From assembly GCA_016934745.1 (NCBI GenBank), contig JAFGSF010000042.1, forward strand, positions 1,202 through 65,201: DNA of 64,000 nucleotides, written 5' to 3'. Position 1 is the first letter of the stretch, and each line of letters opens with the position of its first letter. The translations under genes were made by a program, and so were the position numbers. Of this stretch, positions 7,267-63,546 are shown one piece after another. This stretch comes from Candidatus Aminicenantes bacterium. Its GTDB lineage: Bacteria; Acidobacteriota; Aminicenantia; UBA2199. The notes under the pieces are model-generated. The model ran no database searches. It saw only the letters and a list, made by a program, of their open reading frames with translations, and was not told the origin of the DNA.

Positions 7267-7298
7267 TTTATTTCTCCAAGATTGGCTTCAGAAAAACA

Positions 7299-7333
7299 AT
7301 GCCGCAGGAAACGGTTATCGATTCCTGCGGCAT
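7299..7333 (-). terminator. intrinsic terminator after the lipoprotein gene
   Basis: 12-bp perfect stem ATGCCGCAGGAA / TTCCTGCGGCAT. On the minus strand it is followed by TGTTTTTCTG. Confidence 0.6.
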
Positions 7334-7361
7334 ATGGTTTCAGTAAGTGAGTGAATGTAAA

Positions 7362-8057
7362 TTATTTCCCTTGCTCAAAATCTTCTTTGGGTTGAATCTT
7401 CAGAATAATAAAACGGTTGGGTGCCACCTTGTTGGTCAGGGGATTGATTAGCTCATACTTTCTCAGCAAAAACACGTAATCCTTATCACCGCTGGCTGTG
7501 GTGACCCTGACGATGGTTTTTATGGTGACGGCTTTGCCGGTCATGAGTTCCTGGTTCTGTTCGATGCTGGTGGACATGGTGACCATTTTCTTTTCAATTT
7601 CCACCTGGTTTTTCATTTGGGTATATTCGACCTGGGCCTGCTTGTAATTCTGGGTCTCCATCGCGAGCTCTGCTTCACCGGCTTCGATCTGTTTCTGCAA
7701 TTCGGCTTTTTGCCTTCTGCCGCGTGTTTCTTCCAGATTGGTTTTCAAGATATCCAAGGCGTCTTTTTTATCTTTGACCACGCCGATTTGGGTGTCTTTC
7801 TTTTTCTTGAGATCGGTCATGCCGGCAATTAATTGCTGAAGAATAAGATCTTCGCTGACCGGTTCGTCAGAGGAGACCATGGACCAGGACTTGAATTCCA
7901 AAGCCATCGGTTCCGCTGCCATGGCGGCCATCGTGTCCCTGTCCTTTGCTTTCATGGCCTGAAAATATTTTGAAAGGGTAATTTCTTCAGGCTTCTGACA
8001 GGAAGTTGTAATCATGATTAAAATCATTAATGCAACCAATAATAAAGTTTTTTTCAT
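7362..8057 (-). CDS. coiled-coil lipoprotein, unknown function
   Basis: Signal peptide with lipobox LIMITTSC. Charged heptad-like central region. No catalytic motif recognised. Confidence 0.6.
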   Translation of the reverse strand: MKKTLLLVALMILIMITTSCQKPEEITLSKYFQAMKAKDRDTMAAMAAEPMALEFKSWSMVSSDEPVSEDLILQQLIAGMTDLKKKKDTQIGVVKDKKDALDILKTNLEETRGRRQKAELQKQIEAGEAELAMETQNYKQAQVEYTQMKNQVEIEKKMVTMSTSIEQNQELMTGKAVTIKTIVRVTTASGDKDYVFLLRKYELINPLTNKVAPNRFIILKIQPKEDFEQGK

Positions 8058-13778: not shown

Positions 13779-14523
13779 GCCCTTTAACAAGATTCACCTG
13801 GTTGCTTGCGATTCAACCAACGATTATATCAGGCAAAATATCGCCCGGCTCGAAAGCGAATTTCCCCTGATGGTTAGCAGCGATGTCCAGATTGCCGGGC
13901 GCGGGAGGGAAAAGCGCGAGTGGGTTTCACCGCTTAACCTCGCTATTTACGCAACGTTTGGATTTCATCTTGCCAACAAGCGGGATTTGTCGCTCCTGTC
14001 AATCACGTGCGGGGTCGCGGTAAGCGACATGCTGCAAAACTGGACCGGGAAGGAATTCACCTTGAAATGGCCCAACGACATCCTGGCGGACGGAAAAAAA
14101 ATCGCCGGCATTCTCTGCGAAACCATTGTCAACGCCAATAAAATTATATGCCTGGCCGGCATCGGGGTGAATGTCAATCAAGACAACAAAGATTTCCCCG
14201 GCAGCTTGCGCAGCCGCGCCGGATCAGTGAAGCTGCTGACCGGGAAAACCTGGTTGCTGGCGGAAGGGCGCGCGCGCCTGGCCGCGAGTATGGCCTGCTG
14301 GCTGGGATATTTGATTGCTGATCGAGGGTCATTCATCATTGACCGCGCCCGGGTGCTCAGCCGATCTTTCCTGGGCCGGGCCATTTCTTTTCATCATCAG
14401 GGAAAACGCACCCGGGGGATTTTCTTGGATATTGCCGCGGACGGCGGCTTGCTGCTGGACCAGGAAGGTGCCGGGGGAAAAGTATTTTACAGTGGTGAAC
14501 TGGATCAAGCCGATTTTTCCTAA
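13762..14523 (+). CDS. birA: biotin--[acetyl-CoA-carboxylase] ligase (group I, no N-terminal HTH)
   Basis: GRGREKREWVSP and KWPNDILADGKKIAGIL motifs. TTG start overlaps the valS end; the exact start is uncertain. Confidence 0.85.
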   Translation: MTTCLKPFNKIHLVACDSTNDYIRQNIARLESEFPLMVSSDVQIAGRGREKREWVSPLNLAIYATFGFHLANKRDLSLLSITCGVAVSDMLQNWTGKEFTLKWPNDILADGKKIAGILCETIVNANKIICLAGIGVNVNQDNKDFPGSLRSRAGSVKLLTGKTWLLAEGRARLAASMACWLGYLIADRGSFIIDRARVLSRSFLGRAISFHHQGKRTRGIFLDIAADGGLLLDQEGAGGKVFYSGELDQADFS

Positions 14524-14668
14524 GTCTATCCAAAAAAATTACTTTTGCCAAATTCCCTAAAAAAGTCACAATCGTTTATTGCAATTTTAAACAAAGTTTT
14601 TTAAAATCACAGCAAGGAGAAAATCGGTTTTACTATGCCGTCAATCTGAATTAGTAAAACCAGGTCCA

Positions 14669-16793: not shown

Positions 16794-16816
16794 GATATGG
16801 GATTGACAAAAATCCG

Positions 16817-17422
16817 TTGAGAGAAAGAAATAACACCAGATGCTGGATCGCCGGACTGGTTTTGCTTTCGTTTGCCTGGGTCGCCCTGGGGACGGCCGCG
16901 GACATGCCGCTGGGGGCTACGACCGGCAGGACGGATGGCAAGGCCGGTGCGGTACAAATGGATCCAGCGACCGACGGCGAAAACGGCGTCCTGGAAAAAT
17001 CGGCTGCCATGCCGACTATCAGCAAGAAGAAAAAATTTCCCTAGCTCCTGGCCGTGGTCGGAGTGGCCGTGGTCGGGGTTGCCGTGTATTATTTGTTCAT
17101 CCATGAGCCCACGCAGGTTCAGGATATCCGCGGCAAATGGCAGGTCGAGTTTCACCAGGGGAATTTTACCATGGTTGCTTTATTCTCCGGAACACTGAGC
17201 GCGGGGATGGTTTCGATTCTTGACGGATTCCTTGAAGGTGAGGCGGGGACGTATCAGGTCAGTGGAAACCAGGTCTCTTTCGACATCCCGACGAGATCGG
17301 CATACTACGTGTACAAGTATCAAGGCCACTTTGATACTCCGGACTCCCTTTCGGGCACATATTACGTTGAAACCGATTCTCCGGGTGCTCACAGCGATTT
17401 TACTGCCGTCCGTATTGAGTAG
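16817..17422 (+). pseudogene. member of the small membrane-anchored beta-rich protein family (paralog of 62064-64000), split by an in-frame TAG at 17042-17044
   Basis: Track ORFs 16817..17044 and 17054..17422 are in the same frame, separated only by TAG-CTC-CTG-GCC. The combined architecture (hydrophobic H1, acidic spacer, KKKKFP, TM helix, G.W...GTY.V.G..V...Y.G.F....SGTY domain) matches the three paralogs at the window end. Confidence 0.55.
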
Positions 17423-17544
17423 GAGCTGTGAGTTCCTCGATCCTTGATTGGCCGGCTTTTTTTATAAAAACAGCCACAGCTATCCGGTTTGATATTACAA
17501 AAAATATTTTATAATGGTAGCATTTTGTCGTCAGGAGGTTGTTC

Positions 17545-19614
17545 ATGAAAAAAAATGCCAGGTTGATCATGGTTATGGTGGGATTGTTCTGGACTGGCGC
17601 TCTAGGGGCCGAAGATGCCGCCACGCCGATATTTCAGGCCGCCGATCATCTTAAACAAGTCGCGATCGGTGCGCCGCAGGTCTCGCCTGACGGGCAGTGG
17701 ATCCTCTACTCGCTCTCCATGTACTGTGCCAAGGAAAAAAGCGAAACCAGCGATCTCTTCCTGCTTCCGTTCGCCGGCGGGTTGCCCCGGCAGTTGACCC
17801 ACTCAACTGCAGCCGAAAAAAGTTATTGTTGGAGTCCCGATTCCCGATCCATCGCCTTCTCAGCCAAACGAGACGGTGACGCCAAGAGTCAGATATACAT
17901 CCTCCCTTTGAACGGCGGTGAAGCCTGGCGACTGACCAGCCTGGCCGCTGGCGCTTCGGATCCTCTCTGGTCTCCGGATGGAAAAACACTGGCATTTTAC
18001 TCGGAAGTCGGCGAGCTGTACTCTCCTGAACAAAAGGAGGCTTTCGGTGCAGTTCGCTACGCCATGCATCCCCGTTATCACCATCTGGGCAAAGGATGGG
18101 ACAACGGTAAACGGCAGCGGATTTTCGTCATTCCGGCGCGGGGAGGAGCCGCACTGCAGTTGACCGGCGGTGCTTGCGCCGATGAAGGCGATCACTCGAT
18201 GGTTTGGCGCAATGATTCCAGGGTGCTGGCATTCGTTTCCAACCGCTCGCCTGAATGGTGGAACACGATCGACACCGACATCTACCAGGTGGACATTGCC
18301 GGCAAAGAGCTGAAACGCCTGACCCGTAACCCCGGTCCCGACCATAGCCCGATCTTCAGCCCGGACGGCAAGTGGCTTGCCTGGCGCGCCAGCTATGAAT
18401 ACAACTATGAAAGCGAGGACTACAAAATCCACGTTCAGCCCGTGGCCGGGGACGAATCCCACGTGCTGGCCGCCAAGCTCGACCGTGATGTCAATTTAAT
18501 TCAATGGGCGCCCGACAGCCGTGGACTCTATTTTACGGCTGGCAGCGAAGGTCGCTCCAATATCCAATACGTTTCCCTGGCTCGACCGGAGCGCTGGAGC
18601 GATATCACTCGTGGGCAAAACAATCTGTTTGGATGGAAAGTGGCTGGAAAACAGCGTTTTGCCATGATCCGTACTACCGATACCTGCCCCGGAGAGATAT
18701 ATACTTTCAACCAGGGGCGCTTTAAACGGTTGACCACGGCGGCCGAGGAACCGTTCAATGCGTATAAGCGGCTGCCCTCCGAGGAGATCTGGATCACCGC
18801 TGATGACGGCAGTCGGGTTCAGGGATGGCTAATCCGTCCGCTCGGCTATCGGGAAGGGCTGAAAACACCGCTGATCCTCAGCATTCACGGCGGGCCGCAC
18901 GGCATGTCGGCGCCGACATTCCGCTTCGACTTTCAACTTTACGCCCACCACGGCTTCGCCGTGCTCTATACCAACCCCCGCGGTTCCAATGGCTACGGAC
19001 AGAAATTCAAGGATGTTACTTTCGAGGACTGGGGCACCAAGCCCATGGCCGACCTGATGATGTTTGTCGACCTTGTGATCGGCAAGGGCATCGCCGATCC
19101 CTCCAAGCTGGCCGTTACCGGTGGTTCCTACGGCGGATTCATGACCAACTGGCTTATCACCCATAGCGGGCGCTTTGCCGTAGCCGTCAGCGTAGCCGGG
19201 CTCTATAATATGACCTCTTTCTGGGGCACTACAGACGAACAATTTTTCGCTGAAAAGGAAATGGCCGGCCTGCCCTGGCAAAAGCAGGATGTTTATATCC
19301 GTAACAGCCCCATCTGGAATAGCGAACGCTTGAAAACCCCGACCATGGTCATCCATGGCGCTAATGATTGGCGTGTGCGCCCCGAACAGGGCGAGCAACT
19401 CTTTTCCGCTCTGCAGAAGATGGGAGTTCCGAGCGTCTATGTTAATTTCCCGGAGGAGCAGCACGGCATCCGCGGCAAGATCAACCGCACACTCTACAAC
19501 CGGCTGCTGCTGGAATGGTTCGAGCACTGGCTGCTGGGCAAAGAGGTCAAGTTGGCCACCTATCTGCAGCCGATTCCCTATTCTTATCCGCCGCGCTCTG
19601 TGGAAAAGAAATAA
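17545..19614 (+). CDS. secreted S9 family serine peptidase (second copy; acylaminoacyl-peptidase/DPP type)
   Basis: AGGAGG RBS before ATG 17545. Signal peptide MKKNARLIMVMVGLFWTGALGA. GGSYGGFM, HGANDWRVRPEQ, EEQHGI. Confidence 0.9.
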   Translation: MKKNARLIMVMVGLFWTGALGAEDAATPIFQAADHLKQVAIGAPQVSPDGQWILYSLSMYCAKEKSETSDLFLLPFAGGLPRQLTHSTAAEKSYCWSPDSRSIAFSAKRDGDAKSQIYILPLNGGEAWRLTSLAAGASDPLWSPDGKTLAFYSEVGELYSPEQKEAFGAVRYAMHPRYHHLGKGWDNGKRQRIFVIPARGGAALQLTGGACADEGDHSMVWRNDSRVLAFVSNRSPEWWNTIDTDIYQVDIAGKELKRLTRNPGPDHSPIFSPDGKWLAWRASYEYNYESEDYKIHVQPVAGDESHVLAAKLDRDVNLIQWAPDSRGLYFTAGSEGRSNIQYVSLARPERWSDITRGQNNLFGWKVAGKQRFAMIRTTDTCPGEIYTFNQGRFKRLTTAAEEPFNAYKRLPSEEIWITADDGSRVQGWLIRPLGYREGLKTPLILSIHGGPHGMSAPTFRFDFQLYAHHGFAVLYTNPRGSNGYGQKFKDVTFEDWGTKPMADLMMFVDLVIGKGIADPSKLAVTGGSYGGFMTNWLITHSGRFAVAVSVAGLYNMTSFWGTTDEQFFAEKEMAGLPWQKQDVYIRNSPIWNSERLKTPTMVIHGANDWRVRPEQGEQLFSALQKMGVPSVYVNFPEEQHGIRGKINRTLYNRLLLEWFEHWLLGKEVKLATYLQPIPYSYPPRSVEKK

Positions 19615-19698
19615 AAAGGAAGATCAGCGATCGACTGTTATCCTGAACGCTGAATCGGACGAAACCGTGATTGTTCCGCTTGAATTTCAAAGAATCGC

Positions 19699-20457
19699 TT
19701 ATACTTTAAAAATAACGTTCAACTGGCAGAGGGTAATCTCGTCTTCGTTGTGCAGCTCGTGTTTCACCCCGGTCTGCAGCTTGCTGCCATTCAAGAAAGT
19801 GCCGTTGATCGCCCCCGGTTCCTCGGAAAGATAAAATTTCCCATCCTTGAACATGACTTGTGAATGCTTGCGCGAGATGTATTTTTCCTCGTCCTCATCG
19901 GTCAAATCGATGTCTGGAACGAACCCGGTGGTGTAATCGCGCCGGCCCAGGACTGTGTGGGTTTTGGTCAATTGCACGATGCGGTTCGAACGCTGGATGA
20001 TCAGATAGGCCTTGATATCCGGACTGATTTTTTCCGTGGTCTGATCCTCTTTTTTCACTTCCTTGTTTGCTGTTTTTTCCTTTGCAGCCGGGGAAGAAGC
20101 AGCCTGGGCCATTAAAATAGATTGAATTTTAATATGTTTTTCACTCAATTTTTTTAAAATTTTCAAGGCGATATCGGGCATTTGCTTGAGCATTTCGGTC
20201 AAGGAGACATAGGGGATCTTGATCATGTCCGCATCTTCAATGACTTCCACTGTGTAAATGGCATTCTGGTCGTTGTTCAGTGATTCCTCGCCAAAAAAAT
20301 CACCTTTGCCCAGGGTGGTCAGGATCTGATCGTTTTTATCGTTCTTAAGCTGGATTTTTCCTTTATTGATGATAAAAAAATCGGTTTGATTGTCCCCTTT
20401 CTGATAAATAATGTCGCCAGCCTTGTATTTGCTAATAAATTTTTTTAGTACGTCCAT
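19699..20457 (-). CDS. cyclic-nucleotide-binding domain / FHA domain fusion protein
   Basis: N-terminal cNMP-binding motifs FFIINKGKIQL...GKGDFFGEESL. C-terminal FHA motifs VLGRRD...DIDLT...ISRKHSQVMFKDGKFYLSEEPGAINGTFLNG. Confidence 0.85.
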   Translation of the reverse strand: MDVLKKFISKYKAGDIIYQKGDNQTDFFIINKGKIQLKNDKNDQILTTLGKGDFFGEESLNNDQNAIYTVEVIEDADMIKIPYVSLTEMLKQMPDIALKILKKLSEKHIKIQSILMAQAASSPAAKEKTANKEVKKEDQTTEKISPDIKAYLIIQRSNRIVQLTKTHTVLGRRDYTTGFVPDIDLTDEDEEKYISRKHSQVMFKDGKFYLSEEPGAINGTFLNGSKLQTGVKHELHNEDEITLCQLNVIFKV

Positions 20458-20530
20458 GTTTTTTAGGTTGAGTAAAATATTTTATAAAAGATATTGCCAT
20501 TTGTCAATTTTTATCTTTTCTAAATTTTCT
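20398..20530 (-). repeat. direct repeat copy A (5' 20 codons of the cNMP/FHA gene plus its promoter region)
   Basis: Aligns with 26238-26372. 51/60 nt are identical over the first 20 codons (hand count). The upstream region is collinear with small indels and includes an identical TTGACA-N17-TAAAAT layout. Confidence 0.75.
20479..20507 (-). promoter_or_regulatory. sigma70-type promoter of the cNMP/FHA gene (TTGACA-N17-TAAAAT)
   Basis: On the minus strand: TTGACA (20507-20502), 17-nt spacer, TAAAAT (20484-20479). The ATG at 20457 lies about 21 nt downstream of the -10, with no obvious SD. Confidence 0.55.
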
Positions 20531-20890
20531 TTTTCAGATTTTCATGAATAATGCACAATCCCCGACGGGAAAATACTTTTACTATGATTTCAGCCAATCC
20601 ATTTGTGTTGAAATCATCTAGTGAAAGGACATCAACTGAGCAAGTGGATGATTGGCGCTGTCGCTTATTGATATTTTTGAAAAAGTTCTTTAAAATAATA
20701 TCATGGAGAAAATTGATTTTCCTATCGTATCATCGAGACGCTGGTCGGCAAAATGGGAAACCGGTCCAGTGCTTTTTATCTGTCCGTCGTCCTGGGAATG
20801 ATCGACAAAAACCTAATCGATATCGCGGCCCCGTCCACTGCCCTGGCCGTGAATTTAACCCTGAACGAATCGGTTCTTCACCGGAGCTGA

Positions 20891-22291
20891 ATGGACCCGG
20901 CCGGCATAATGAGCTTCCCGGGTCAAAACCGCCGCCTGACGATCCTGGGCGGCGGCATGGCCGGGCTTTCCGTCGGCTACTATGCCGGGAAGGCCGGTCT
21001 TCCGTTCATGATCCTGGAAGCGCAGAACGAGCTCGGAGGAAATTGCCGAACGTTCCGCTATAATGGATTCGCCTTCGATGCGGGAGCGCACCGCTTCCAT
21101 GACAAGGACGCATTCCAGACCCGGGAGATCAGAGCCCTGCTGGGTGACGATATCCGCGAGGTCTGCGCACCGAGCCGGATCTATCACGACGGCGTCTTCA
21201 TCGATTTCCCGCTCTTGCTCCCCGATCTCCTTCGGAAGCTTGGCCTTCCCTTTTTTTTCAAAGCGGCGCTCGAAGTCCTGAAAGCCAGGCTGTCCCCCAG
21301 GATCCCGGACATGAATTTCGAGGAATTCGTCCTGCGCGCCTATGGGCGGACAATCGCCGGGATCTTCCTGCTCGGTTACACCGAAAAGCTCTGGGGCGTC
21401 CATCCCCGTTGCCTCTCGCCGCTTGTCCTGGGAGGGCGATTGCGGGGCTTGGACCTGGCCACTTTTCTCGGTGGGGGTCTCGGCATCTGCAAGCCGGGGG
21501 CAAAGCACCTGGACGGTTCTTTTTATTATCCGCGCCAGGGGATCCAGGACATCCCCGATGCTTTGGGGAATTTTTGCGGCCGCGACTGCATCCGGACCGA
21601 AGCGCGGATCAGCCGGGTCATGCATGATGGAAAGACGATCCAGGCCGTCGAGGTTAACGGCAGGGACCGGATCGAGACCGACCGGGTCATCACCACCCTA
21701 CCGCTCACGAGCTTTTTGGGATTGCTGGACCCGCCTCCTCCGCCTGAAGTCGCCCTCCTGGCCGGGGATCTGGCATACAGGGACCTCGTCCTCTGTGCGC
21801 TCTTCATAGACCGACCAAAGATATCGGACTGCGCTTCTTTCTATTTTCCTGACCGCGGGACGCCTTTCTCCCGGGTCTATGAGCCGAAAAACAGAAGTGC
21901 GGAGATGTCGCCTCCGGACAAAACCTCTTTGGTCGCGGAATTTCCCTGCGTTCAGAACGATGCGGTCTGGAACGCGGCCGACGCCGGGATCGCGGAGATG
22001 CTCGGGGCCGAATTCATCCGGATGGGGCTGCTTCGACCGGCAGACATCCTCGGTCATCAGGTGGTTAGAATGCGCCATGCCTACCCGGTGATCAGGAGGA
22101 ACATGGCCGATACCCTCGGACCGATCTTCCGCTACTTGGACGAGCTCGGGAACTTGCATGTCTGCGGCCGCGGCGCAAGTTTTGAATACATCCACATCCA
22201 TGACCTGATGCGCCGGGGCCATGACCTGATCGAGGATCTGCGCGGCGGCGGTAAAGGGGCGGCCTTAGGAAATCCCGGTCAGCTTCAGTAG
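20891..22291 (+). CDS. FAD-dependent oxidoreductase (amine-oxidase / UDP-galactopyranose-mutase-like fold)
   Basis: Dinucleotide-binding LTILGGGMAGLSVGYYA...LEAQNELGGNCRTF...FDAGAHRFH. High GC. The true start may be the internal Met 20909. Confidence 0.7.
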   Translation: MDPAGIMSFPGQNRRLTILGGGMAGLSVGYYAGKAGLPFMILEAQNELGGNCRTFRYNGFAFDAGAHRFHDKDAFQTREIRALLGDDIREVCAPSRIYHDGVFIDFPLLLPDLLRKLGLPFFFKAALEVLKARLSPRIPDMNFEEFVLRAYGRTIAGIFLLGYTEKLWGVHPRCLSPLVLGGRLRGLDLATFLGGGLGICKPGAKHLDGSFYYPRQGIQDIPDALGNFCGRDCIRTEARISRVMHDGKTIQAVEVNGRDRIETDRVITTLPLTSFLGLLDPPPPPEVALLAGDLAYRDLVLCALFIDRPKISDCASFYFPDRGTPFSRVYEPKNRSAEMSPPDKTSLVAEFPCVQNDAVWNAADAGIAEMLGAEFIRMGLLRPADILGHQVVRMRHAYPVIRRNMADTLGPIFRYLDELGNLHVCGRGASFEYIHIHDLMRRGHDLIEDLRGGGKGAALGNPGQLQ

Positions 22292-23650
22292 GCCCCGAAG
22301 ATTCGTCCGCCAATCCTCGATGTTCAAGCTTGCCAGGCGGCGGAGGATATAGGTCGGCCGGAAATAGAACGAGCGATAGGCTTTCTTCAGCATTCCCCGC
22401 AGCTCCGGGGTCGGGATGTCCGTGGCGTTCATCGAACAGGAATCCGATCGCAAATGCAACGCATCCCCTTCCCCCAGGAACCAGCCGTTCTCGGCAGCCA
22501 TACGATGGAGCTCCGTGCCCGGGAAAGGGGCGCAGCTCTGAAAATTCGCAAAGTCAGCCTTGATATCCTTGGCCAGGGCGATCGATCTCGCGATTGTCTC
22601 CCGGGTGTCGCCGGGATTGCCGATCATGATGTTGGCGACCGCCCGGATGCCGGCCTCCCGTGTCATCCGGAACGTCTCGATGACCTGGGGAATCGTGATG
22701 TTTTTCTTTAATGTATCGAGGATGTTTTGGTCTCCCGACTCGACTCCGTATTGGATGAGCCGGCATCCCGAGCGGCGCATTTCGCGGAGCAAGACCGGGT
22801 CCATGAGTCCGATGTGGCCATTGCACGTCCACGGGATCCTTTTCGGCTCCCGCATTAAAAGCTCGCAAAATTCCAGGACGCGCTCCCGGTCCAGGGTGAA
22901 ATCGCTTTCCTTGAACATGATTTCTTTGACCCCGAACTCGCCGACGAGAATCCGCCATTCCCTGATCATCCGCGGCGCGGAATAGGCCCGGTATTTCTTC
23001 CCGAGGACGATGCGACTGTCGCAAAAGATACAACGGAACGGGCAGCCCCGGCTCGTGAGCATCATCCCCAGCGGAGCATGGGCGGACTGTGGATTGGAAT
23101 AACGGCGGATGGGGAGAAGGTCATACGCGGGCAGAGGCAGCTCGTCGAGGTCCTTGATGAACGGTCGGGGGGCGTTGATGATGACCCGGCCATCCCTCTT
23201 GAAAGCGACACCGCTGACGTCGTCCGGGCTGCGCCCCTGCTCCAGCGCCCGGGCCAAATCGACGACTGTCCTTTCCCCTTCGCCGAAAACTACGAAATCA
23301 ACGGATTCCATCCCTGCCACGTCCCCGGGAAAAATGGTTGGGTGGACGCCGCCGAAGATGACCTTTGTCTCGGGACTCCGTTTCTTGATCGTTCGGGAGA
23401 TTTCCAGTCCGGTTTCGAACAGGGGTGTTGTCAGGCTGAGTCCGACGACGTCCGGAGGTTCCGAGGATAAAGCCCCTAAGATCTCCTCGTTCGGGTGTCG
23501 GGAGATATTCGCGTCCAGAATGCGGACCCGATTAAATCCGGCTTCCCTGAGGGCCGCGGCGATATAGGCCAGCCCCAACGGAGGCAACCGGATATCGGAA
23601 AAATAACTCTTTTCGAGCTTGGGATGGATGAGCAGTATTTTTAAATGCAT
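22265..23650 (-). CDS. B12-binding-domain radical SAM protein (class B rSAM)
   Basis: N-terminal B12-binding-like KILLIHPK...PPLGLAYIAAALREAGF..VRILD...VVGLS. Cluster motif LTSRGCPFRCIFCDS. The 3' end overlaps the convergent oxidoreductase gene by 27 nt. Confidence 0.85.
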   Translation of the reverse strand: MHLKILLIHPKLEKSYFSDIRLPPLGLAYIAAALREAGFNRVRILDANISRHPNEEILGALSSEPPDVVGLSLTTPLFETGLEISRTIKKRSPETKVIFGGVHPTIFPGDVAGMESVDFVVFGEGERTVVDLARALEQGRSPDDVSGVAFKRDGRVIINAPRPFIKDLDELPLPAYDLLPIRRYSNPQSAHAPLGMMLTSRGCPFRCIFCDSRIVLGKKYRAYSAPRMIREWRILVGEFGVKEIMFKESDFTLDRERVLEFCELLMREPKRIPWTCNGHIGLMDPVLLREMRRSGCRLIQYGVESGDQNILDTLKKNITIPQVIETFRMTREAGIRAVANIMIGNPGDTRETIARSIALAKDIKADFANFQSCAPFPGTELHRMAAENGWFLGEGDALHLRSDSCSMNATDIPTPELRGMLKKAYRSFYFRPTYILRRLASLNIEDWRTNLRGLLKLTGIS

Positions 23651-23712
23651 CGGTGCGGTACTATATACACCCGTTCTGGGCGAAAATCAAGGGTCCCCCT
23701 GCCTGCGACAGC

Positions 23713-26079
23713 TCATTTAACGGCGATCCTGACAAACACTCCAAGCGTCCTGTTGTCGGGGACGCGCCGGTCGAGGTGGTAGGGAACGAACGGCGAATGT
23801 TCCCGCACCCGGACCAAGTATAAATAGGCTCCCCGCCAGCGAAAGCCGCGAGGAGACTTGAAAACGACCCTATACTCAGGGGATCGTTCCGGATCATGCC
23901 GGACGCTCGCCCGAAACCGGTCAACCCGGATCTCCGCATGGCCCGGAGCGGCGCCAGCGAGCGATAGAGCGATCTCCGCAAGCCGCTTCGGAGACTGGAG
24001 CACGACGGAAGCCTCTGCCGTTCCCTTCGTCCAGAATCCGCCTTCCTCCAGACCGAACTGGTTTTCGTCTTGAAAATATAGGATATAGCCGCCGGCCTTG
24101 AAGGAAACCGGATTGACGAGGCGAACATGAAAGAACACGATGGCCAGAAAGAGAACGGAAGAAGCCAGGACGATGCCCACCCGACTGATCGAAGAAAAGG
24201 ACGGGACGGAGGTCTTGTTTCGGAGGCGGAGGATGACAACCGTGACGAGGAGAAGGGCCAAAACCCACCCCGCCAGGGGACCCATCTCCAACGCGCCCGA
24301 CGCCTTTAATGCGGGTGTCCACGTGTTCGGATCAAAGAAGAGATTTCCGGCCGCGGCCAGGAAGCGGCTTTCCGAAAGGATGTTGCCGGCTTTGGGATTG
24401 CTGTTGACATGGTAGAGGAGTTGAGGGACGGACAGGGAAAAACCGGCGATGAGGGCGCTCAGGCCGGCCAGCCCGGCTTTGATCACCGCCGCGAGCCGAC
24501 CGGTTGGCGCGGCCAGGGCACATGCGCAGAAGGCTCCTGGGATCCACATCAAGGGAAGCAGCGGTCGGCCCGGCGGGCAGTAACCTCCCAGATGGAAAGC
24601 GGCCGCCGCGGTGAACCAATAGGCCCCGAAAGCGATGACGAGTTCGACCCGGGCTGTCATCTTTCTTTTCCGCAGGATGAGGAAGCCGGCCACGACCAGC
24701 AAATAGAGCGGGGCATGGATGAATATCCCGTTCTTCTTCTCGAAAAACAAGCTCAGCGCGGCGCCGATGAAGGACGGGACATCGGTCGGCCTGAGCGGCC
24801 GAATCAAGTCCAGGCTGCTCGGGAGGTTTACGCCGGTATAGGCCGAAGCCGGGTTGACATGTCCATAACACGACCAGAGGAAAAGCAGAAACAAGCCCAT
24901 GGAAACGAGGGGAAAGAGGGTGAGTCGAACCACCTTCCCAAGATCAGCCGCCGGTTTTTTCAGGTAGGGACGTGCTCCAAGGACGAAGAAAACGGCCGAG
25001 AGCACGATGTATTTGATCCCGAACCAGGGAAGGAGGGCCAGCCCGAGCCCCGAGAAGAAAAGGATGTGCGGGCGGTCGTCCCGCTTGAAGATGAGATGCC
25101 TGAAAATGAGAAGGGTGATGAGCGCGACCGGGACTTCAGGGTAAATGAGCCCTGAGAAAAAGAGCATCGGGCCGGTGAACATGAAGGCAAGCCAGGAGAT
25201 GAGCGCCGCCGTGCGATTTCGGGTCAGGTCGAAAATGAAAAAGAAAAAAGCCATGCCCAGAAGTGCGGTCAGGATCATGATGGGAAGGCGGACCAGAAAG
25301 ACGAAGGCCTTGAGACCGCCGGCCTTCTCGCCCAGGGCGTAAAACGGGACGAGCAGAACCGAAAGTCCAGGAAGGTGGCGGGAATACTGATGATCGGGAC
25401 CGAGCCGGCCAGGATTGGCGTGGGATTCAAGCTCTCCGGGATAGAAGCGCAGATAATCCCTGTTCGCGTACTCGTCGGCAAGGTTGATGTCCCCATCGCC
25501 AAGGAGACTTTGTGTAATCAGGAGATAATGCGGTTCGTCCCCGGTCAGAGGATGTTGGGGAAAGACCAGGCCCGAAGCGAGAAACGTAAAAATGGTAAAA
25601 GATCCAAGACACAGCGCCAATCCGGTTCGCCGCGGAATGGGGCCTTCGGCGTTTCGGGAAATCTGCCCATCCCAAAAAAGAAAAAAGAGCAGCCCGGTCG
25701 AACCGGCCAGGGCCGTAGGCAGGAGATAACACCGGATATCTTTCAAGAACCAGAGCAACGACATGTGTTTTAAAAAAAGAAGACAGAGGGGGGATAATGC
25801 CAGAACGACCCTCGATTCGATTTTCCTCGGATTCTCTGCCGTTTGTTCAGTGAGGAGGCGCCTGCAGCCGCGGATGAATCCGGAAAGGGCCAACGCCGCC
25901 GCCGCCCAGGAGACGAATATCAGGAGATCTCCTGCGATAAACGCGCCCACGGCGGCCGATTCCAGGATAAAAAGGACCGTGGGCATTGCCGGGTTCGAGT
26001 TTCCTACCACCGGGGCGGCCACCGCATCCTTCTTCCGTAGGTCGCGGGATAAGGCTGGCCGGGGGCGGGAAGGAGTCAA
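23713..26079 (-). CDS. 788-aa polytopic membrane protein, GT-C-fold (ArnT/PMT-like) glycosyltransferase candidate with a C-terminal soluble domain
   Basis: More than 10 predicted TM helices. The first-loop acidic motif HPLTGDEPHYLLITQSLLGDGD resembles the DE.(H/R)(Y/F) loop motif of GT39/GT83 enzymes. About 150 aa of non-membrane C-terminus. Confidence 0.5.
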   Translation of the reverse strand: MTPSRPRPALSRDLRKKDAVAAPVVGNSNPAMPTVLFILESAAVGAFIAGDLLIFVSWAAAALALSGFIRGCRRLLTEQTAENPRKIESRVVLALSPLCLLFLKHMSLLWFLKDIRCYLLPTALAGSTGLLFFLFWDGQISRNAEGPIPRRTGLALCLGSFTIFTFLASGLVFPQHPLTGDEPHYLLITQSLLGDGDINLADEYANRDYLRFYPGELESHANPGRLGPDHQYSRHLPGLSVLLVPFYALGEKAGGLKAFVFLVRLPIMILTALLGMAFFFFIFDLTRNRTAALISWLAFMFTGPMLFFSGLIYPEVPVALITLLIFRHLIFKRDDRPHILFFSGLGLALLPWFGIKYIVLSAVFFVLGARPYLKKPAADLGKVVRLTLFPLVSMGLFLLFLWSCYGHVNPASAYTGVNLPSSLDLIRPLRPTDVPSFIGAALSLFFEKKNGIFIHAPLYLLVVAGFLILRKRKMTARVELVIAFGAYWFTAAAAFHLGGYCPPGRPLLPLMWIPGAFCACALAAPTGRLAAVIKAGLAGLSALIAGFSLSVPQLLYHVNSNPKAGNILSESRFLAAAGNLFFDPNTWTPALKASGALEMGPLAGWVLALLLVTVVILRLRNKTSVPSFSSISRVGIVLASSVLFLAIVFFHVRLVNPVSFKAGGYILYFQDENQFGLEEGGFWTKGTAEASVVLQSPKRLAEIALSLAGAAPGHAEIRVDRFRASVRHDPERSPEYRVVFKSPRGFRWRGAYLYLVRVREHSPFVPYHLDRRVPDNRTLGVFVRIAVK

Positions 26080-26195
26080 TGGCTAAACCCGGCCCCGTAC
26101 GATCCCGTGCCAACGATCCGGAGTTCCGTCCCGAAATTCGAGTCGGAATCGCGTGCCCCATTCGACCGTCCCGAATCCGGCGCTTGGCATCATCG

Positions 26196-26297
26196 CCTCG
26201 AGACAGGCTTCGTTCGTCGCTGCCGGAATCTCATCATTTTTTGAAAGATCCTGTCGCCAGCCTTGAATTTACTATTAAATTTTTTTTGTACGTCCAT
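26196..26297 (-). pseudogene. truncated remnant (33 codons) of a cNMP/FHA-type gene 5' end
   Basis: MDVQKKFNSKFKAGDRIFQK matches MDVLKKFISKYKAGDIIYQK of the 19699..20457 gene. It then diverges (MMRFRQRRTKPVSRR*) into high-GC DNA. Confidence 0.6.
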
Positions 26298-26372
26298 GTT
26301 TTTCTGGTTTGAATAAAAAACATTTTAAAGAAGATGTTTTTACATGTCAATTTTTGTCTTTTTTATTTTAAA
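26238..26372 (-). repeat. direct repeat copy B (remnant 5' codons plus promoter region)
   Basis: See copy A (20398-20530). Confidence 0.75.
26322..26350 (-). promoter_or_regulatory. second copy of the TTGACA-N17-TAAAAT promoter, reading toward the cassette's minus-strand genes
   Basis: On the minus strand: TTGACA (26350-26345), 17-nt spacer, TAAAAT (26327-26322). Confidence 0.5.
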
Positions 26373-26453
26373 TGACACGTTGTTCGCGCCGATTTGCCAA
26401 GGAGCTTTTTTTATTCTAAAATACTCTTGCGCCCTGTTTCCGGCTGTATTTTT

Positions 26454-28184
26454 ATGAGCATGAACATTAAAAAAGAATTTCCGTTTTTGTTCCCGGCCCC
26501 AAAGACGATTCGTCTGCAAAACCGCACTCTCGATATCCAGAGCTTGTGTTTCCCTCTCGAAATCACAAAAAAGTATGATTTTTTATTTGAGTATTTTCAC
26601 ATAAAGAATAAAAATCGTGGCTTGGAGATCACCTGCCAAGAAAAAAAAACATTGGCTGCTGAAGAATATGTCATTGAGTGCGATCAGACCCAGGTTGTCA
26701 TCGGGGGCAATTCCCTGCGTGGTCAGTTTTATGCTTTGTCTACCTTGTTGCAGATTCTCGCTTATTATCAGCCCGGCGGGCGCATGCCCGGTTTTATTAT
26801 TGAAGACGCTCCCAAATTAGGTTTCCGTGGTTTCCTGCTTGCTGTGGAGCATGGAGCCTTTCCCCTGCAGGCGGAACTTCAGCGCCTGCTGTTGAAGCTG
26901 GCTTTGTTGAGGTTCAACCAGTTTTCGTTGTCCCTGGCTGCTTGGTCCGGGGAAGAAGAAAATGCCGGCAACACCCTTCCGAAAGAAAACCTGCCCCGGG
27001 AAGAAATGAACCAGATCATTGACCTGGCCGGAAAAATGGGGATCGACTTCGTCCCTGCCATTGTTGCCGGACCCGCGCTTCACCTCCCTGATATATTCAG
27101 CGCTGGGATTTTAGCTTCTTTCCGTTCAAGAAAGATCATGATCCGATTCAACGAAACGACTGAAAGTGATCCGGCGGCGGAATGGTTTGAACGTTTTCTG
27201 AACACGTATCGCTTGTTCAAGGCCCATGGCAAGACCATGCTGATTTGGGGAGATGCTTTTCTGAAAGTACCCGATTTGATAAGGAAAATGCCCAAGGATG
27301 TGGTTGTGCTCAGCGGTGATGGTGACATTGAAAGAACGGAGATGTACCGGAGAAAAGCCGGACCTTTCAGAAAGCACCATATCCCTCAAGTGTTATGTAC
27401 GGCAACCTGGGGCCGGGCCAGGTTTATCCCGGCCATGCGTAAAAGTGCGGTAAACAATTTGGCGGCGTATGCGGCGGTCAAAGAGGAAAAACTCGCCGGG
27501 ATCCTGCTGAAGGATTGCCAGGACCAGGGAGATGGCAGTTTTTTGGAGGGGATCATCCTGGGGTTGTATCAAGCCGGAAATCTTTTCTGGAGCGGGCAGG
27601 CACCCGGACCGGAAGCCTTTGCCCGCTGGGCCCTGGGCTTTAACGAGCCCGATCTGTTCAGGATTTATACGTTCTTGTCGCAGGTCGACAGCCCGCTGCA
27701 GCATAGCCATTGGCAGTACTTGTTCGAAGATCCCCTGTGCGCCACTTTTTCCAAGCAGGACAATGTCAAGGAAATTGTGGCGCGTTACCGGAAAGCATCG
27801 CAATATTTGAAAAAAAGAAAGATCGTCCGCAACGAGATGAGCGATTTTTTGAACATTGCCCAGCACCTGTATGAATTCGTCGCCGAAAAAGTGGATTTTT
27901 CCAGCCGGCTCCTATCCGGCCTGAATGCGATCGACGGTGATGCACATCTCCAGCGAAAACTGGACCGGCTTCTAGCTGACGTAGAAAAACTGAAGAATCT
28001 TTTTTGCGCATTGTGGCTCAAGCGGCGCAAACCGTATGGTCTGGCAAAAAAAGTCAGGAGATTTGATTTTTTGCAGGAGCGTTTGAATTATCTCCTGCTC
28101 TCCATGGCTCATCCGGCGGCAAGAAAAATACTTTTGTCGGAACTTGAAAACGGTACCCCGCCGATGGAGTCGCGGCGCCGCTAA
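26454..28184 (+). CDS. glycoside hydrolase family 20-like protein (beta-N-acetylhexosaminidase-like); catalytic pair not evident
   Basis: GH20b-like N-domain and junction motif LRGQFYALSTLLQIL...GFIIEDAPKLGFRGFLL. Where GH20 enzymes have H(I/L)GGDE, this protein reads MLIWGDAFL. ATG 26454 is preferred over the track's TTG 26394. Confidence 0.5.
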   Translation: MSMNIKKEFPFLFPAPKTIRLQNRTLDIQSLCFPLEITKKYDFLFEYFHIKNKNRGLEITCQEKKTLAAEEYVIECDQTQVVIGGNSLRGQFYALSTLLQILAYYQPGGRMPGFIIEDAPKLGFRGFLLAVEHGAFPLQAELQRLLLKLALLRFNQFSLSLAAWSGEEENAGNTLPKENLPREEMNQIIDLAGKMGIDFVPAIVAGPALHLPDIFSAGILASFRSRKIMIRFNETTESDPAAEWFERFLNTYRLFKAHGKTMLIWGDAFLKVPDLIRKMPKDVVVLSGDGDIERTEMYRRKAGPFRKHHIPQVLCTATWGRARFIPAMRKSAVNNLAAYAAVKEEKLAGILLKDCQDQGDGSFLEGIILGLYQAGNLFWSGQAPGPEAFARWALGFNEPDLFRIYTFLSQVDSPLQHSHWQYLFEDPLCATFSKQDNVKEIVARYRKASQYLKKRKIVRNEMSDFLNIAQHLYEFVAEKVDFSSRLLSGLNAIDGDAHLQRKLDRLLADVEKLKNLFCALWLKRRKPYGLAKKVRRFDFLQERLNYLLLSMAHPAARKILLSELENGTPPMESRRR

Positions 28185-32036: not shown

Positions 32037-32151
32037 AAGTCACCTCCACGCGACCCTTGCATTATAATTGCCTGGGCGAAAAACTTCAATGCATTTAACT
32101 TCTGGACCTGCGTGCTTTGTGATTTCGCTGGATTTAAACTATAATCAAATC

Positions 32152-34956
32152 ATGGCAGCTATTGATTTTTCTGTACATGACCATGTGTCTTTGACAAAAA
32201 AGAAAACGATCGCCTGCCTGTTTAGCGCCCTCATTTTACTTTATTTTCTATGCTTGCCGCTTCAGGCGCAGGCCAAGCACACTCTGGTCCTCAGTGACCA
32301 GAAGCAAACATATGAATTGGGGCTGCATTTGGAAATACTGGCTGATCCCGGTGCCAGATTGACTGTCGAGGATATCCAAAAACCGGAATACAGTTCACAG
32401 TTTATGCCCAGTGGGCATCGTGTTCCCAATTTTGGTTTCACAAAGTCGGCCTTCTGGGTACGGTTCAATGTAAGGAACGAGGCCAGTAGCCGATCGCCTT
32501 GGGCGCTGCAATTGAATTATCCCAGCATGGATTTTGTGGATTTATTCATCGTGACTCCCGAAGGCAAATCCCTGCCGGTAAAAAAGTCCGGAAGAATGCG
32601 CCCGCTCCCGGAGAAGGACCATGTTGATCCTTACCCGGTTTTTCTGATCCCCTTTCCCAAGTTCCAGACGCAGAAAGTATATATGCGTTTCCAGAGCGAA
32701 GAATCGATGACCATCCCCCTCATTCTCTGGTCCATGACGGGGTTCGTTGCGCAAGTGGGACTGGCTCATATTGCCAATGGATTCGTCCTGGGTATTTTGG
32801 CTGTCATGGCTCTCTACAATTTGTTCCTTTTTATTTCCTTGAAAGATAAAAACTATCTTTATTTTGTTTTATGCATCGTCACTATTCTTTTTTTCATACT
32901 CTCTTCAAGAGGAATTGGTTTGCATTATTTTTGGCCCAACTCTATTGTGTTTAACAAGTTAACCCTGCCCATTTCCGCCGGGTTAATGGTCCTTGCTTTG
33001 ATGAAGTTCGCCGATGCGTTCCTGATGGTAAAAAAACACATGCTTGGTTTGCACTGGGTTTTCAATGGTTTGCTGCTGGCCACCGCTGCCTTGGTAGTGG
33101 CTGCGCCTTTTTTGAGTTATCACACGGTGATCCAACCCATGGTCCTGGCCGGAATATTCGGGTCTATTTTAATGCTGGCATCGGCCGTCGGTTCATTTCT
33201 CAAGGGCTACCGGCCGGCTCGATATCTGCTGTTGGGATTTTCGATCATGTCCATGGGCGGGATCGGTTTTTTCCTGGTACGCTTGGGCCTGTTGCCGAGC
33301 ACGCACCTGACCGAGCAAGGCTTCACCTCCGGAAATATCGCGCTCATCCTGCTGATGGCGTTGGCCCTGGCCGATCGCATTAAAATCTTGAAGCTTGAAA
33401 AAGAACAGTCTGAAGTGAATTTGCGGGAAAGCGAAGAGCAGCTGCGCATTTTGTCCCGCGCCACCGAGCAGAGCCCGGCCCTGATCATCATTACTGATTT
33501 GAAGGGAGATATCGAGTATGTCAATCCGCGCTTCAGTACTGTGACTGGATATTCTTTCAACGAGGTCAAGGGAAAGAATCCGCGCTTGTTGAAATCGGGG
33601 GAAACCCCGGCGTCAACCTACCTGGAAATGTGGGCCACCATCCTGTCAGGCGAAGCTTGGCGCGGTGAATTGCACAACAAAAAGAAAAACGGCGATTTGT
33701 ACTGGGAAAACGCTTTCATCTGCCCGATTAAAAATGAAGCGGATGAAATCACCCATTATCTGGGCCTTAAAGAAGATATTACGGTGAACAAGGAACTTCA
33801 GGAACAATTGTTTCAGGTTCAGAAAATGGAGTCCATCGGCACATTGGCTGGCGGCATTGCCCATGACTTCAACAACATCCTGACGGTCATCAAGGGACAC
33901 TGCGATCTGGCCTTGAGCAAAATGGATAAAGGCAGTCCCGTCTATGCCAATGTGTCGGTCATCCATTCTGCCGGCGAAAAGGCGGAAAACCTGATCCGGC
34001 AAATCCTGGCATTCAGCCGCAAACAGATCTACCTGCCTCATATTGTCAATATCAACCAGATTGTCACCGACATAAAAAACATGATTGTGCACTTGATTGG
34101 CGAAGATATCAAGATCGAGATGGTATTGTCCCCGACAGCCCCTGTGATAAGCGCCGATCCCAGTCAAATCGAACAAATTTTCGTAAATCTGATCGTCAAT
34201 GCCCGTGATGCGATAAACCAAAAGACGGAAAAGGCTTCCGAGAAGAAAATTACCATCGAAACCGGGTTGACCCTGCTGGATGAAAATTATACCAAGATGC
34301 ACGTCGGAGCAAAAGCGGGCCCGCATTTATTTTTTTCGGTCAGTGATTCCGGGACCGGAATCGACGAAGCGAACCGGAAAAAGATATTCGAGCCGTTTTT
34401 TACCACCAAGAAAAATGGCACTGGCCTCGGGCTGGCAACCGTTTATGGGATTGTCAAGCAGAATGACGGAAATATCTTTTTGTATAGTGAATATGGCAAG
34501 GGCACCACTTTTAAAATCTACTGGCCGGCGATTGTCGAAAAAATTCCGACCATCACCCATGAGCCGATCGATGCAAAGGACCTGCGGGGCCGGGAGAAAG
34601 TGCTGCTGGCCGAAGACGATGCCGATGTCGTCGCTTTTACCGGCAGGGTTTTGAAAGAAGCCGGTTATCAGGTTGAAGTTGCCAGAGATGGTCAAAAGGC
34701 CCTGGACGTGGTGTTGAAAGGAGGCTTCACCCCCGATCTGCTGGTCACCGACCTGATCATGCCCGGCATGAACGGCAAAGAGTTAGCGGAAAAGGTCAAG
34801 GAAAAAGTACTGGGGATTCGCATTCTTTTTACATCGGGATACACGGATAACCATCTTGTGCATAATGGGCAATTGGACGCAAACATCGATTTCCTGCAAA
34901 AGCCTTACTCCATGGTGAAGCTCTTGAAAAAAGTTCGCGAAGTTTTGCAAAAATAA
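32152..34956 (+). CDS. hybrid sensor histidine kinase: 7TMR-DISMED2 + 7TMR-DISM 7TM + PAS + HisKA/HATPase + receiver
   Basis: DISMED2-like [25 protein letters not shown]...[14 protein letters not shown]. Seven TM helices. PAS ([19 protein letters not shown]). H-box [16 protein letters not shown] boxes [38 protein letters not shown]. The start is uncertain (32068-32152). Confidence 0.85.
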
Positions 34957-34984
34957 TCGCTGCCGGCGGGGTGTGTCCATAGGG

Positions 34985-35009
34985 GCCGTCAGTTAGTCGC
35001 CTTGACGGC
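34985..35009 (+). terminator. candidate terminator hairpin between the convergent histidine kinase and nrdJ genes
   Basis: GCCGTCA-N11-TGACGGC followed by TAATTTTCTT. Confidence 0.4.
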
Positions 35010-35037
35010 TAATTTTCTTCCGCTATTTTAACCAGGC

Positions 35038-61991: not shown

Positions 61992-62005
61992 AAAGCGAAA
62001 AAAAA

Positions 62006-62033
62006 CCGTCCCTTTCCGTGCGGAAAGGGACGG
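62006..62033 (-). terminator. intrinsic terminator (12-bp perfect GC-rich stem) between convergent murB and paralog A
   Basis: CCGTCCCTTTCC-GTGC-GGAAAGGGACGG. On the minus strand it is followed by T8. Confidence 0.75.
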
Positions 62034-62063
62034 TCGAAAATTCCGGATACCCGGAGAAGGGGC

Positions 62064-62690: not shown

Positions 62691-62823
62691 GGACAATAGT
62701 CCTCCTGATTTTTAGATACTCCATTATATATGAGATTGCTTTTTCATTGTCAATGTTTCGGGCAATAAAAAAGCCTCACAAGCAATATATTGTTTTTTGA
62801 CTATTCCCGGACGCTGATGGCGG

Positions 62824-63432: not shown

Positions 63433-63546
63433 GGGCAGCACGCCTCACTTTGATTCTTCATTATTATTATAGTCTTGTTACCCGTTTGTCAGTGCTTTTC
63501 AGCGAGCAGTGCTGTGGCGGCAGGCGTTTGTGTGAAAGGTTGGTGA

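Follow-up and report, generated by a model that had tools for sequence, protein, structure and literature searches.

Horizontally transferred genes are readily activated in the laboratory by capture of a resident promoter, through deletions or duplications at microhomologies (PMC6614815). Insertions into an essential gene survive as a duplication in which one copy of the target is intact and the other interrupted (PMC3784515). Integration of e14 in icd, at the 3′ end of the gene, leaves a 163-bp pseudo-icd′, and integration of Rac in ttcA, at the 5′ end, alters the N-terminus of TtcA (PMC6379469). Putative mobile promoters have been described as highly similar promoter segments that stand before unrelated genes without known mobile elements, and their mode of movement was stated to be unknown (PMC3575422). 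Here we describe a locus from Candidatus Aminicenantes that resembles each of these in part. It was found in a 64,000-nucleotide stretch of DNA (assembly GCA_016934745.1, contig JAFGSF010000042.1, positions 1,202 to 65,201), hereafter called the window, and coordinates below are window positions unless a relative is named. At this locus, a lineage-specific insertion of 5,709 bp (20529–26237) is flanked by direct copies of a 131-bp target, which spans the promoter and first 20 codons of a gene for a protein with cyclic nucleotide (cNMP)-binding and FHA domains. The inserted DNA has an AT-rich left end followed by a GC-rich cassette of three genes, encoding a predicted GT-C-fold glycosyltransferase, a B12-binding radical S-adenosylmethionine (SAM) enzyme and an FAD-dependent oxidoreductase. 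We assign a probability of about 0.65 to the reading that a foreign cassette was inserted with duplication of its 131-bp target and that one copy of the target was captured as a promoter for cassette genes.

An initial annotation, made from the sequence alone, had proposed that the promoter and first 20 codons of the cNMP/FHA gene recur in the same orientation. Local alignment of positions 20300–20750 against 26150–26460 returned two direct copies, 20398–20528 (copy A) and 26238–26369 (copy B), with 106 of 134 columns identical (79%) and three short gaps. The alignment score was 124, and composition-preserving shuffles (n=500) gave a mean of 22.2, a standard deviation (sd) of 3.0 and a maximum of 36. 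The same pair was recovered by a separate repeat search, and a 52-nt degenerate pattern derived from both copies matched A and B and nothing else in the window, where 0 matches were expected. When the window was compared with itself by BLAST, only a paralogous gene pair at 62–64 kb gave a stronger repeat, and no non-coding repeat was stronger. The repeat could not be followed past 20528/26369 or into the gene body. Copies A and B share no exact run of more than 16 nt, and this run is located at the start codon rather than at an edge of the repeat. When positions 20529–20660 were compared with the repeat unit in search of a third partial copy or a remnant of tandem duplication at the left junction, scores were no better than those of shuffles.

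Both copies are read on the minus strand and have the same anatomy: a TTGACA-17-TAAAAT element, a short AT-rich leader, an ATG and 20 codons. In copy A the −35 hexamer is at 20507–20502, the −10 hexamer at 20484–20479 and the ATG at 20457, with codons 1 to 20 extending to 20398. In copy B the hexamers are at 26350–26345 and 26327–26322, and the remnant open reading frame (ORF) occupies 26297–26190. These are the two best sigma-70-like sites in 19.5–26.7 kb, each matching 11 of 12 consensus positions. The peptides of the first 20 codons are MDVLKKFISKYKAGDIIYQK and MDVQKKFNSKFKAGDRIFQK, with 51 of 60 nucleotides identical. The initial annotation was accurate on the peptides, the identical promoter elements and the nucleotide count; its placement of the stop of the second copy at codon 34 was not. 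Copy B reads MDVQKKFNSKFKAGDRIFQK followed by 15 unrelated codons and a stop, giving 35 sense codons with the stop as codon 36. Copy A continues into an intact gene of 252 codons (19699–20457, minus strand; Pfam cNMP_binding 2.5e-18 and FHA 4.1e-10), and by this anatomy copy A is taken as the working promoter and 5′ end of the cNMP/FHA gene.

For comparison with relatives, one genome per species was scanned for cNMP/FHA orthologues, giving 60 loci. The protein has 300 homologues (best 94% identity), which are annotated as Aminicenantes where named. Beyond copy B lies a divergently oriented gene for a GH20-like glycoside hydrolase (26454–28184, plus strand; Pfam Glyco_hydro_20b and Glyco_H_20C_C), and it had been asked early on whether this gene and the cNMP/FHA gene are directly divergent neighbours in related genomes. 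They are so in about 25 of them (L002–L015, L017, L018, L021, L030 and L059–L061), about 100–170 bp apart, and these empty-site genomes span 67–94% cNMP/FHA identity. None of the 60 related loci has cassette genes at this site, and none has a second copy of the promoter and 5′ segment within 10 kb. In the closest relative, L002 (CAVYQZ010000010.1), the cNMP/FHA protein is 94% identical, its DNA about 90% and the GH20-like gene 86%. A BLAST comparison of the window with L002 aligns 19691–20529, leaves a gap and resumes at 26252, and copies A and B both map to one L002 segment (L002rc 10700/10714–10832). Because a single L002 segment is matched by both copies, the repeat is a genuine duplication of the insertion target. 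In the multiple alignment, copy B runs without interruption into L002 intergenic sequence on the GH20 side, and copy A runs on into the gene body. The earlier characterization of the locus as an acquisition or recombination scar, with a long and already diverged duplication and no classical mobile element, is supported by this empty site.

The left breakpoint falls after codon 20 of the cNMP/FHA gene. A promoter-like site for the GH20-like gene (TTGCCA-17-TAAAAT, 26394–26422, plus strand) lies outside the duplication, which places the right breakpoint between two back-to-back promoters. Note that the longest GH20-like ORF opens at TTG 26394, but this TTG is the −35 hexamer of that site; the true start is probably ATG 26454, where a gene call also begins, giving 576 amino acids. 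The cNMP/FHA gene is among the most highly conserved in Aminicenantes, with 73% mean column identity and long invariant stretches (for example, LGRRDYTTGF.PD.DLT.ED.EKYISRKH). Throughout one large subclade it stands between the GH20-like gene and a biotin-ligase-like gene.

Comparison of both copies with the single copy of L002 shows which of them changed and where. Copy A is 90% identical to the L002 copy, and the three differences in its 60 coding nucleotides are all synonymous. Copy B has the copy-A state at all three of these positions, so copy B derives from the gene of this lineage itself and not from a foreign donor. Nine private columns of copy A were counted, upstream of the −35 hexamer and in the 5′ leader, with none in the coding part or core promoter; on closer examination most of these proved to be boundary or alignment effects. 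Copy B carries about 19 private changes in 131 positions. Nine of these are in the coding stub (6 non-synonymous and 3 synonymous, close to the neutral expectation), where they strike residues that are at least 90% conserved in 37 orthologues, including the near-invariant Y11 and Y18. Sites at which copy B agrees with L002 against copy A were considered as a sign of a donor-derived copy or of a recombinant L002; they were set aside as alignment effects, since they fall at the ill-defined outer limit of copy A and in a stretch of 5′ untranslated region shifted by an indel.

At four-fold sites the window has diverged from L002 by 0.21 (raw) or 0.25 (corrected), about 0.11–0.125 per lineage, and the divergence specific to copy B is about 0.15. 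These values place the event near the time of the split from L002, and a duplication of this age argues against an assembly artefact. They also bear on a history in which cassette and duplication are ancestral and were lost in relatives by recombination between the direct copies. Deletion between direct repeats would give exactly the single-copy state of the relatives, and a B divergence above the per-lineage value means that the event may slightly predate the L002 split. On this account, however, about 25 empty-site genomes would need many independent precise losses, of which at most one (in L002) is plausible; the cassette composition is foreign and unameliorated, and its closest homologues occupy unrelated contexts. 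We consider ancestral presence with loss to be very improbable.

The initial annotation had described the interval between the copies as visibly richer in GC than its surroundings. The step is real, with GC of 0.57–0.62 over 20.75–26.25 kb, 0.24–0.25 in copies A and B and 0.46–0.52 in the genes beyond, and with 0.59 over the three cassette genes. High GC is not unique to the cassette, however: the gene for an S9 peptidase (17539–19614), which lies beyond the cNMP/FHA gene and is also lineage-specific, is nearly as GC-rich (0.565). Among 40 window genes, those of the cassette have the highest GC (0.58–0.61; mean 0.51±0.05) and the highest GC at third codon positions (0.70–0.74; mean 0.61±0.07). 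Tetranucleotide correlation with the whole window is lowest in the 5-kb windows over the cassette (0.785–0.82, versus 0.87–0.96 elsewhere). The compositional deviation of the cassette should be considered moderate, at about 1.5–2 sd.

In a search among 5.8 billion proteins, the nearest homologue of the GT-C protein, besides the window's own, is 65–67% identical, and the closest homologues span 62–67%. The same three genes, in the same order and orientation, were found on L062 (GCA_003153725.1), L063/L064 and L065, contigs of 0.57–0.62 GC on which the flanking genes are entirely different. Protein identities for the trio are 62–76%, with 67% for the oxidoreductase and 74–76% for the radical SAM enzyme. 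DNA homology to these contigs covers 20923–25977 at about 72%, and none of them has a segment resembling the cNMP/FHA promoter or 5′ end. By these sequence comparisons, the trio is a portable functional unit that was horizontally acquired. The S9 peptidase gene was also considered as a neighbour of the cassette in a common donor, and this was rejected, since no S9 peptidase is encoded within 7–10 kb of the cassette in L062–L065.

Copy B faces the GT-C and radical SAM genes and lies on the same strand, with 250–330 nt separating it from the GT-C gene downstream. Its sequence has diverged by about 20% overall, yet all 12 hexamer positions and the 17-nt spacer are retained (P about 0.07). Between copy B and the GT-C start there are 251 nt of GC-rich (0.63) untranslated donor DNA (25987–26237), and a simple scan of its minus strand found no promoter-like and no terminator-like site. 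All three cassette ORFs are full length relative to their homologues while the unconstrained stub has gained 15% changes, which argues that the cassette genes have been kept by selection and must be expressed. From its position and conserved elements, copy B likely serves as the promoter of the GT-C/radical SAM operon, that is, as a captured promoter.

This arrangement is close to promoter capture by duplication as known from laboratory selections (PMC6614815). In both, a resident promoter and the first part of its gene are copied upstream of a gene that has no working promoter, while the source gene retains a copy for itself. Neither requires a mobile element, and both have illegitimate breakpoints. 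In the laboratory cases the tandem repeat includes the activated gene, whereas here 131 bp of the target alone are duplicated and the foreign DNA between them is single-copy; moreover, the case described here is known from sequence. The laboratory work is thus a precedent for the outcome and not for the exact geometry. The rnk-citT case of Cit+ E. coli is reportedly one of promoter capture by duplication.

The history of the locus can be summarised as follows. A foreign segment of 5.7 kb entered the divergent promoter region between the GH20-like and cNMP/FHA genes, and the 131 bp between the breakpoints came to lie on both sides of the insert. The cNMP/FHA gene thereby retained its full promoter and reading frame through copy A, and copy B, as a second strong promoter, would read into an otherwise promoterless GT-C/radical SAM operon. 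The oxidoreductase gene, on the opposite strand, lies behind a separate promoter module of host type. The stub of copy B has since drifted at a roughly neutral rate. The most economical route, with the fewest events, would be a one-step illegitimate insertion at breaks staggered by 131 bp, or the joining of ends across sister chromatids, with selection retaining only the outcome that spared the cNMP/FHA gene. Joining of incoming DNA across sister chromatids is also the mechanism proposed for the merodiploids that are selected when a transforming cassette inserts into an essential gene, in which intact and cassette-interrupted target copies likewise coexist (PMC3784515). Those duplications are 100–900 kb long and bounded by insertion sequence (IS) repeats; the one described here is 131 bp and involves no pre-existing repeats.

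Direct repeats around an insert are also the product of a single crossover of a circle, and a history in two steps with conspecific DNA was weighed accordingly. In variant (a), the cassette would have broken the cNMP/FHA gene at codon 20, and the gene would then have been repaired by homology-facilitated illegitimate recombination with cassette-free conspecific DNA, anchored in the gene body and with the illegitimate joint at 20528/20529. In variant (b), a circle carrying the cassette and the 131-bp segment would have integrated in Campbell fashion by a single crossover within that segment, leaving the direct repeats seen on both sides. Both copies come from this or a very close lineage, as either variant needs, and with a gene as conserved as cNMP/FHA, repair would be strongly selected. 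There are documented examples of homology-facilitated illegitimate recombination from several bacteria (PMC3240628). Nevertheless, an extra event and a viable intermediate are needed. Variant (a) passes through a broken cNMP/FHA gene, and variant (b) presupposes a previous arrangement that released a circle holding exactly this segment. None of the 60 related loci shows an intermediate state, and no mosaic pattern that would mark a crossover was found in the copies, where the apparent B=L002 sites are alignment and boundary effects. A two-step origin therefore seems to us unlikely.

Transposons and IS elements make target-site duplications of 2–14 bp. The present locus shares with them a direct target duplication flanking the insert, but the duplication is 131 bp long, and neither a transposase nor terminal inverted repeats were found, so transposition was rejected. 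Pfam and NCBIfam scans of the cassette ORFs detected enzymes of metabolism or of the envelope only and no integrase, transposase or recombinase, no recombinase gene or remnant was found in 16.8–28.2 kb, no tRNA was found at the locus and no terminal inverted repeats were found at the insert ends. The sole inverted pair near those ends (20667–20696 and 26322–26351, 73%) is formed by a pair of sigma-70-like promoters in opposite orientation, of which one belongs to the duplicated target. That integrase, transposase, tRNA and terminal inverted repeats are all missing had already been asserted in the initial annotation, and the domain scans, tRNA search and repeat searches agree.

The closest known anatomy is that of e14 and Rac (PMC6379469). 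There, too, a gene end is present twice as diverged border repeats, the gene remains functional, a pseudo-fragment lies at the far border and the repeats are comparable in length (163 bp for icd′). Such repeats are attL and attR, made by an integrase with one copy borne by the element; here no recombinase was found, both copies are host-derived and the cargo is a three-gene metabolic cassette. The locus could still be a decayed island of the integrase type that carried a replacement 5′ end and promoter, with its repeats as attL and attR and its integrase lost. Such integrations are characterized by diverged direct repeats of a gene end, the gene being intact at one border and present as a pseudo-fragment at the opposite one, and the cassette relative L062 has an rve fragment nearby. 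Neither the insert nor the DNA beside it contains a gene for an integrase or recombinase, or the remnant of one. On this reading copy A would have been brought in by the element, yet it matches the native L002 sequence at 90% identity and is AT-rich like the host, unlike the cassette, and copy B shares its lineage-specific synonymous variants. Cassette relatives L062–L065 lack a segment like that of cNMP/FHA, and the longest identical core is the 16 nt at the start codon and not at a repeat edge. On balance, we regard a decayed island of this type as quite improbable.

Because the contig comes from a metagenome assembly and GC changes abruptly at AT-rich, low-complexity borders, the possibility was also considered that the cassette of another organism was joined to an Aminicenantes contig at the repeat. 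A second, independent assembly of run SRR13394437, from Logan, matches the window at 100% identity across 18,080 bp that include both junctions, and has the identical 18-kb structure, though it was built from the same reads. Exact runs shared by A and B (no more than 16 nt) are too short to mislead a k-mer assembler, and the left junction has no repeat able to bridge two genomes. Copy B is also a truncated, decayed stub fused to cassette DNA rather than the intact gene of a second strain. A chimera is hardly credible on this evidence.

Several points weigh against insertion with target duplication and promoter capture. Known transposition footprints are much shorter than 131 bp, and a duplication of this length points to no particular enzyme or intermediate. 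The divergence of copy B is slightly above the per-lineage neutral estimate, so that the event may predate the L002 split, which would require loss in L002. Conservation of the copy B hexamers goes only marginally beyond chance at the P value given above and should be considered suggestive. A donor promoter of a kind that a simple scan fails to recognise could lie in the GC-rich 251 nt before the GT-C gene. The junctions are supported by two assemblies built from the same reads, and the donor lineage is unsampled, the nearest cassette proteins being only 62–76% identical. With these reservations, the locus combines two known phenomena, acquisition of a genomic islet and promoter capture by duplication, and is unusual in the length of the target duplication.

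How transferred genes acquire promoters without harm to their neighbours is usually reconstructed from laboratory selections. In the natural case described here, the empty site is retained in relatives, and both junctions, the duplicated promoter and a decaying spare stub can still be read. It would illustrate one concrete route, in which insertion is coupled to duplication of a 131-bp target promoter.

The account of the insert borders in the initial annotation holds for copies A and B but did not include a second promoter module of host type at the left end of the cassette. This module (20661–20728, plus strand) has a TTGATA-17-TAAAAT element at 20668–20696 with a promoter-like score of 10/12, and it faces the oxidoreductase gene. 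Its ATG at 20703 opens a stub ORF (MEKIDFPIV...) of 32 codons that ends at 20801. Positions 20661–20728 are 78% identical to 14572–14636 (plus strand), which lies upstream of a KASIII-like gene. The conserved unit is about 75 nt long and consists of TTGCTA-17-TAAAAT, six bases, an ATG and eight codons reading M(G/E)KIDFPI(V/S), with unrelated sequence thereafter. Its spacing suggests a leaderless transcript, and a palindrome that it holds (GAAAAT-TG-ATTTTC) could be an operator.

Copies of the module are present in L002 (14076–14006 and 13041–12976, minus strand) and in L014 (2634–2587, minus strand). One of the L002 copies heads an L002-specific insertion of 1.1 kb and the other precedes KASIII; in L014, the module starts exactly where homology with three close relatives stops. 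A strict exact pattern of the module matched 24 metagenome contigs (L068–L091), upstream of unrelated genes. The products encoded downstream of modules differ (a GT2, one MBOAT-like and one GT-C-like protein, a thioesterase and lipoproteins). Read from the module ATG, the frame usually closes after 9–72 junk codons, and in one case it is fused to GT2; this is in L084, which has three module copies in 4.5 kb, one of them joined in frame to the GT2 gene. The module has no Rfam match and no attC-like fold (single-stranded DNA folding of a 95-nt consensus gave a z-score of −0.5). An integron gene cassette was rejected as an identity for the module on the basis of this z-score and because no core or inverse-core sites were seen.

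The L002-specific insertion that one module heads (13057–14174; L002rc 6583–7700) lies between the biotin-ligase-like and KASIII-like genes and encodes a GC-rich, 248-amino-acid membrane protein without a Pfam match. With a module copy ahead of it and the KASIII promoter, a diverged member of the module family, behind it, this insertion is bracketed by direct promoter copies.

The module and copy B are built alike, each being a promoter and N-terminal stub placed before accessory genes and bordering lineage-specific DNA, and it is this likeness that lifts the locus above an isolated scar. The description of putative mobile promoters given by Matus-Garcia, Nijveen and van Passel (2012) applies to copy B as well as to the MGKIDFPIV module. 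Their survey used positions −150 to −50 and left out pairs with similar adjacent coding sequence (PMC3575422); here, the repeat includes the start codon and a coding stub, and the origin of copy B, as a target duplication, is visible. We tentatively raise, as a doubtful generalization, a transposase-independent process through which Aminicenantes genomes would gain new genes, with the present locus as a recent and still readable example, and in which insertion just inside the 5′ end of a resident gene duplicates the promoter and first codons, one set serving the resident and the other the newcomer. That repeated rounds of such a process yield families of promoters with N-terminal stubs, of which the M(G/E)KIDFPI(V/S) module would be an old and successful product, is an equally speculative extension. 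Alternatively, the module may be the conserved promoter-operator of a regulon that travels with its genes. If the link between copy B and the module holds, it would hint at how mobile promoters spread without transposases in a large uncultured lineage.

The first cassette gene (20891–22291, plus strand) encodes an FAD-dependent oxidoreductase of the amine-oxidase/PRK07208 type with 466 amino acids (Pfam Amino_oxidase 1.2e-18 and NAD_binding_8 2.3e-14). It matches NCBIfam PRK07208.1-4 at 2.2e-66, which is under the cut-off of that model, and has weak similarity to UDP-galactopyranose mutase. An ORF of 45 codons (20753–20890, plus strand), which was gene-called in the Logan assembly, ends one base before the oxidoreductase ATG; it is not conserved in the cassette relatives, and may be either a coupling upstream ORF or noise. 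No credible riboswitch or other RNA element emerged when the entire window was scanned with Rfam at gathering thresholds and positions 20350–21000 were scanned permissively. The second gene (22265–23650, minus strand) is convergent with the first, with an overlap of 27 nt, and encodes a B12-binding radical SAM enzyme of 461 amino acids (Pfam B12-binding 1.2e-24 and Radical_SAM 5.2e-22). Its best NCBIfam matches score far under their curated cut-offs (HpnJ, 217 versus 578; BchE, 215 versus 481), and only the superfamily domains pass.

The third gene (23713–25986, minus strand) encodes 757 amino acids from its ATG, and its open frame reaches TTG 26079. The protein has no Pfam match and a weak NCBIfam match to LA_3751/2 (35 bits versus a cut-off of 200), and a sequence search against the PDB returned nothing useful. 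An AlphaFold model built with 24 homologues has a pLDDT of 86 and a pTM of 0.80. Top Foldseek matches of the model are EmbC/EmbB, AglB, ArnT, Pmt4, AftB and ALG9, and its C-terminal beta-sandwich domain resembles carbohydrate-binding modules. A GDEPHY loop motif (D150-E151-P152-H153-Y154), acidic and located in the first external loop, is invariant across the 24 homologues. The 757-amino-acid protein is, as judged from the model, a polytopic glycosyltransferase of the GT-C fold. More distant relatives of the GT-C protein, at about 40% identity, occur commonly in Aminicenantes, in some cases within polysaccharide clusters. By homology, and with low precision, the three-gene module most probably builds a modified lipid-linked sugar or transfers it onto the cell envelope. 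The trio of GT-C glycosyltransferase, B12-radical-SAM enzyme and FAD oxidoreductase is conserved and uncharacterised, and is a candidate pathway for envelope-glycan modification.

Two further insertions are specific to the window in comparison with L002. One (16807–19690, GC 0.55) falls precisely within the 26-nt spacer where the sulfotransferase and cNMP/FHA genes converge, and contains a 122-amino-acid ORF without a family match, together with the gene for a PD40/S9 prolyl-oligopeptidase-type peptidase. The other (32091–35035) contains a gene for a 962-amino-acid PAS/hybrid histidine kinase-response regulator, with GC of 0.48 like that of the host. No flanking duplications were found at either insertion, so the duplication described above is not general to every indel in this region. 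Elsewhere in the window, the repeat at 62–64 kb consists of tandem paralogous ORFs (62064–63982) of about 205–210 amino acids without a Pfam match; 62390–62695 and 63132–63437 are 74% identical, a third partial copy occupies 63871–63982, and a near-perfect palindrome of 30 nt is located at 62005–62034.

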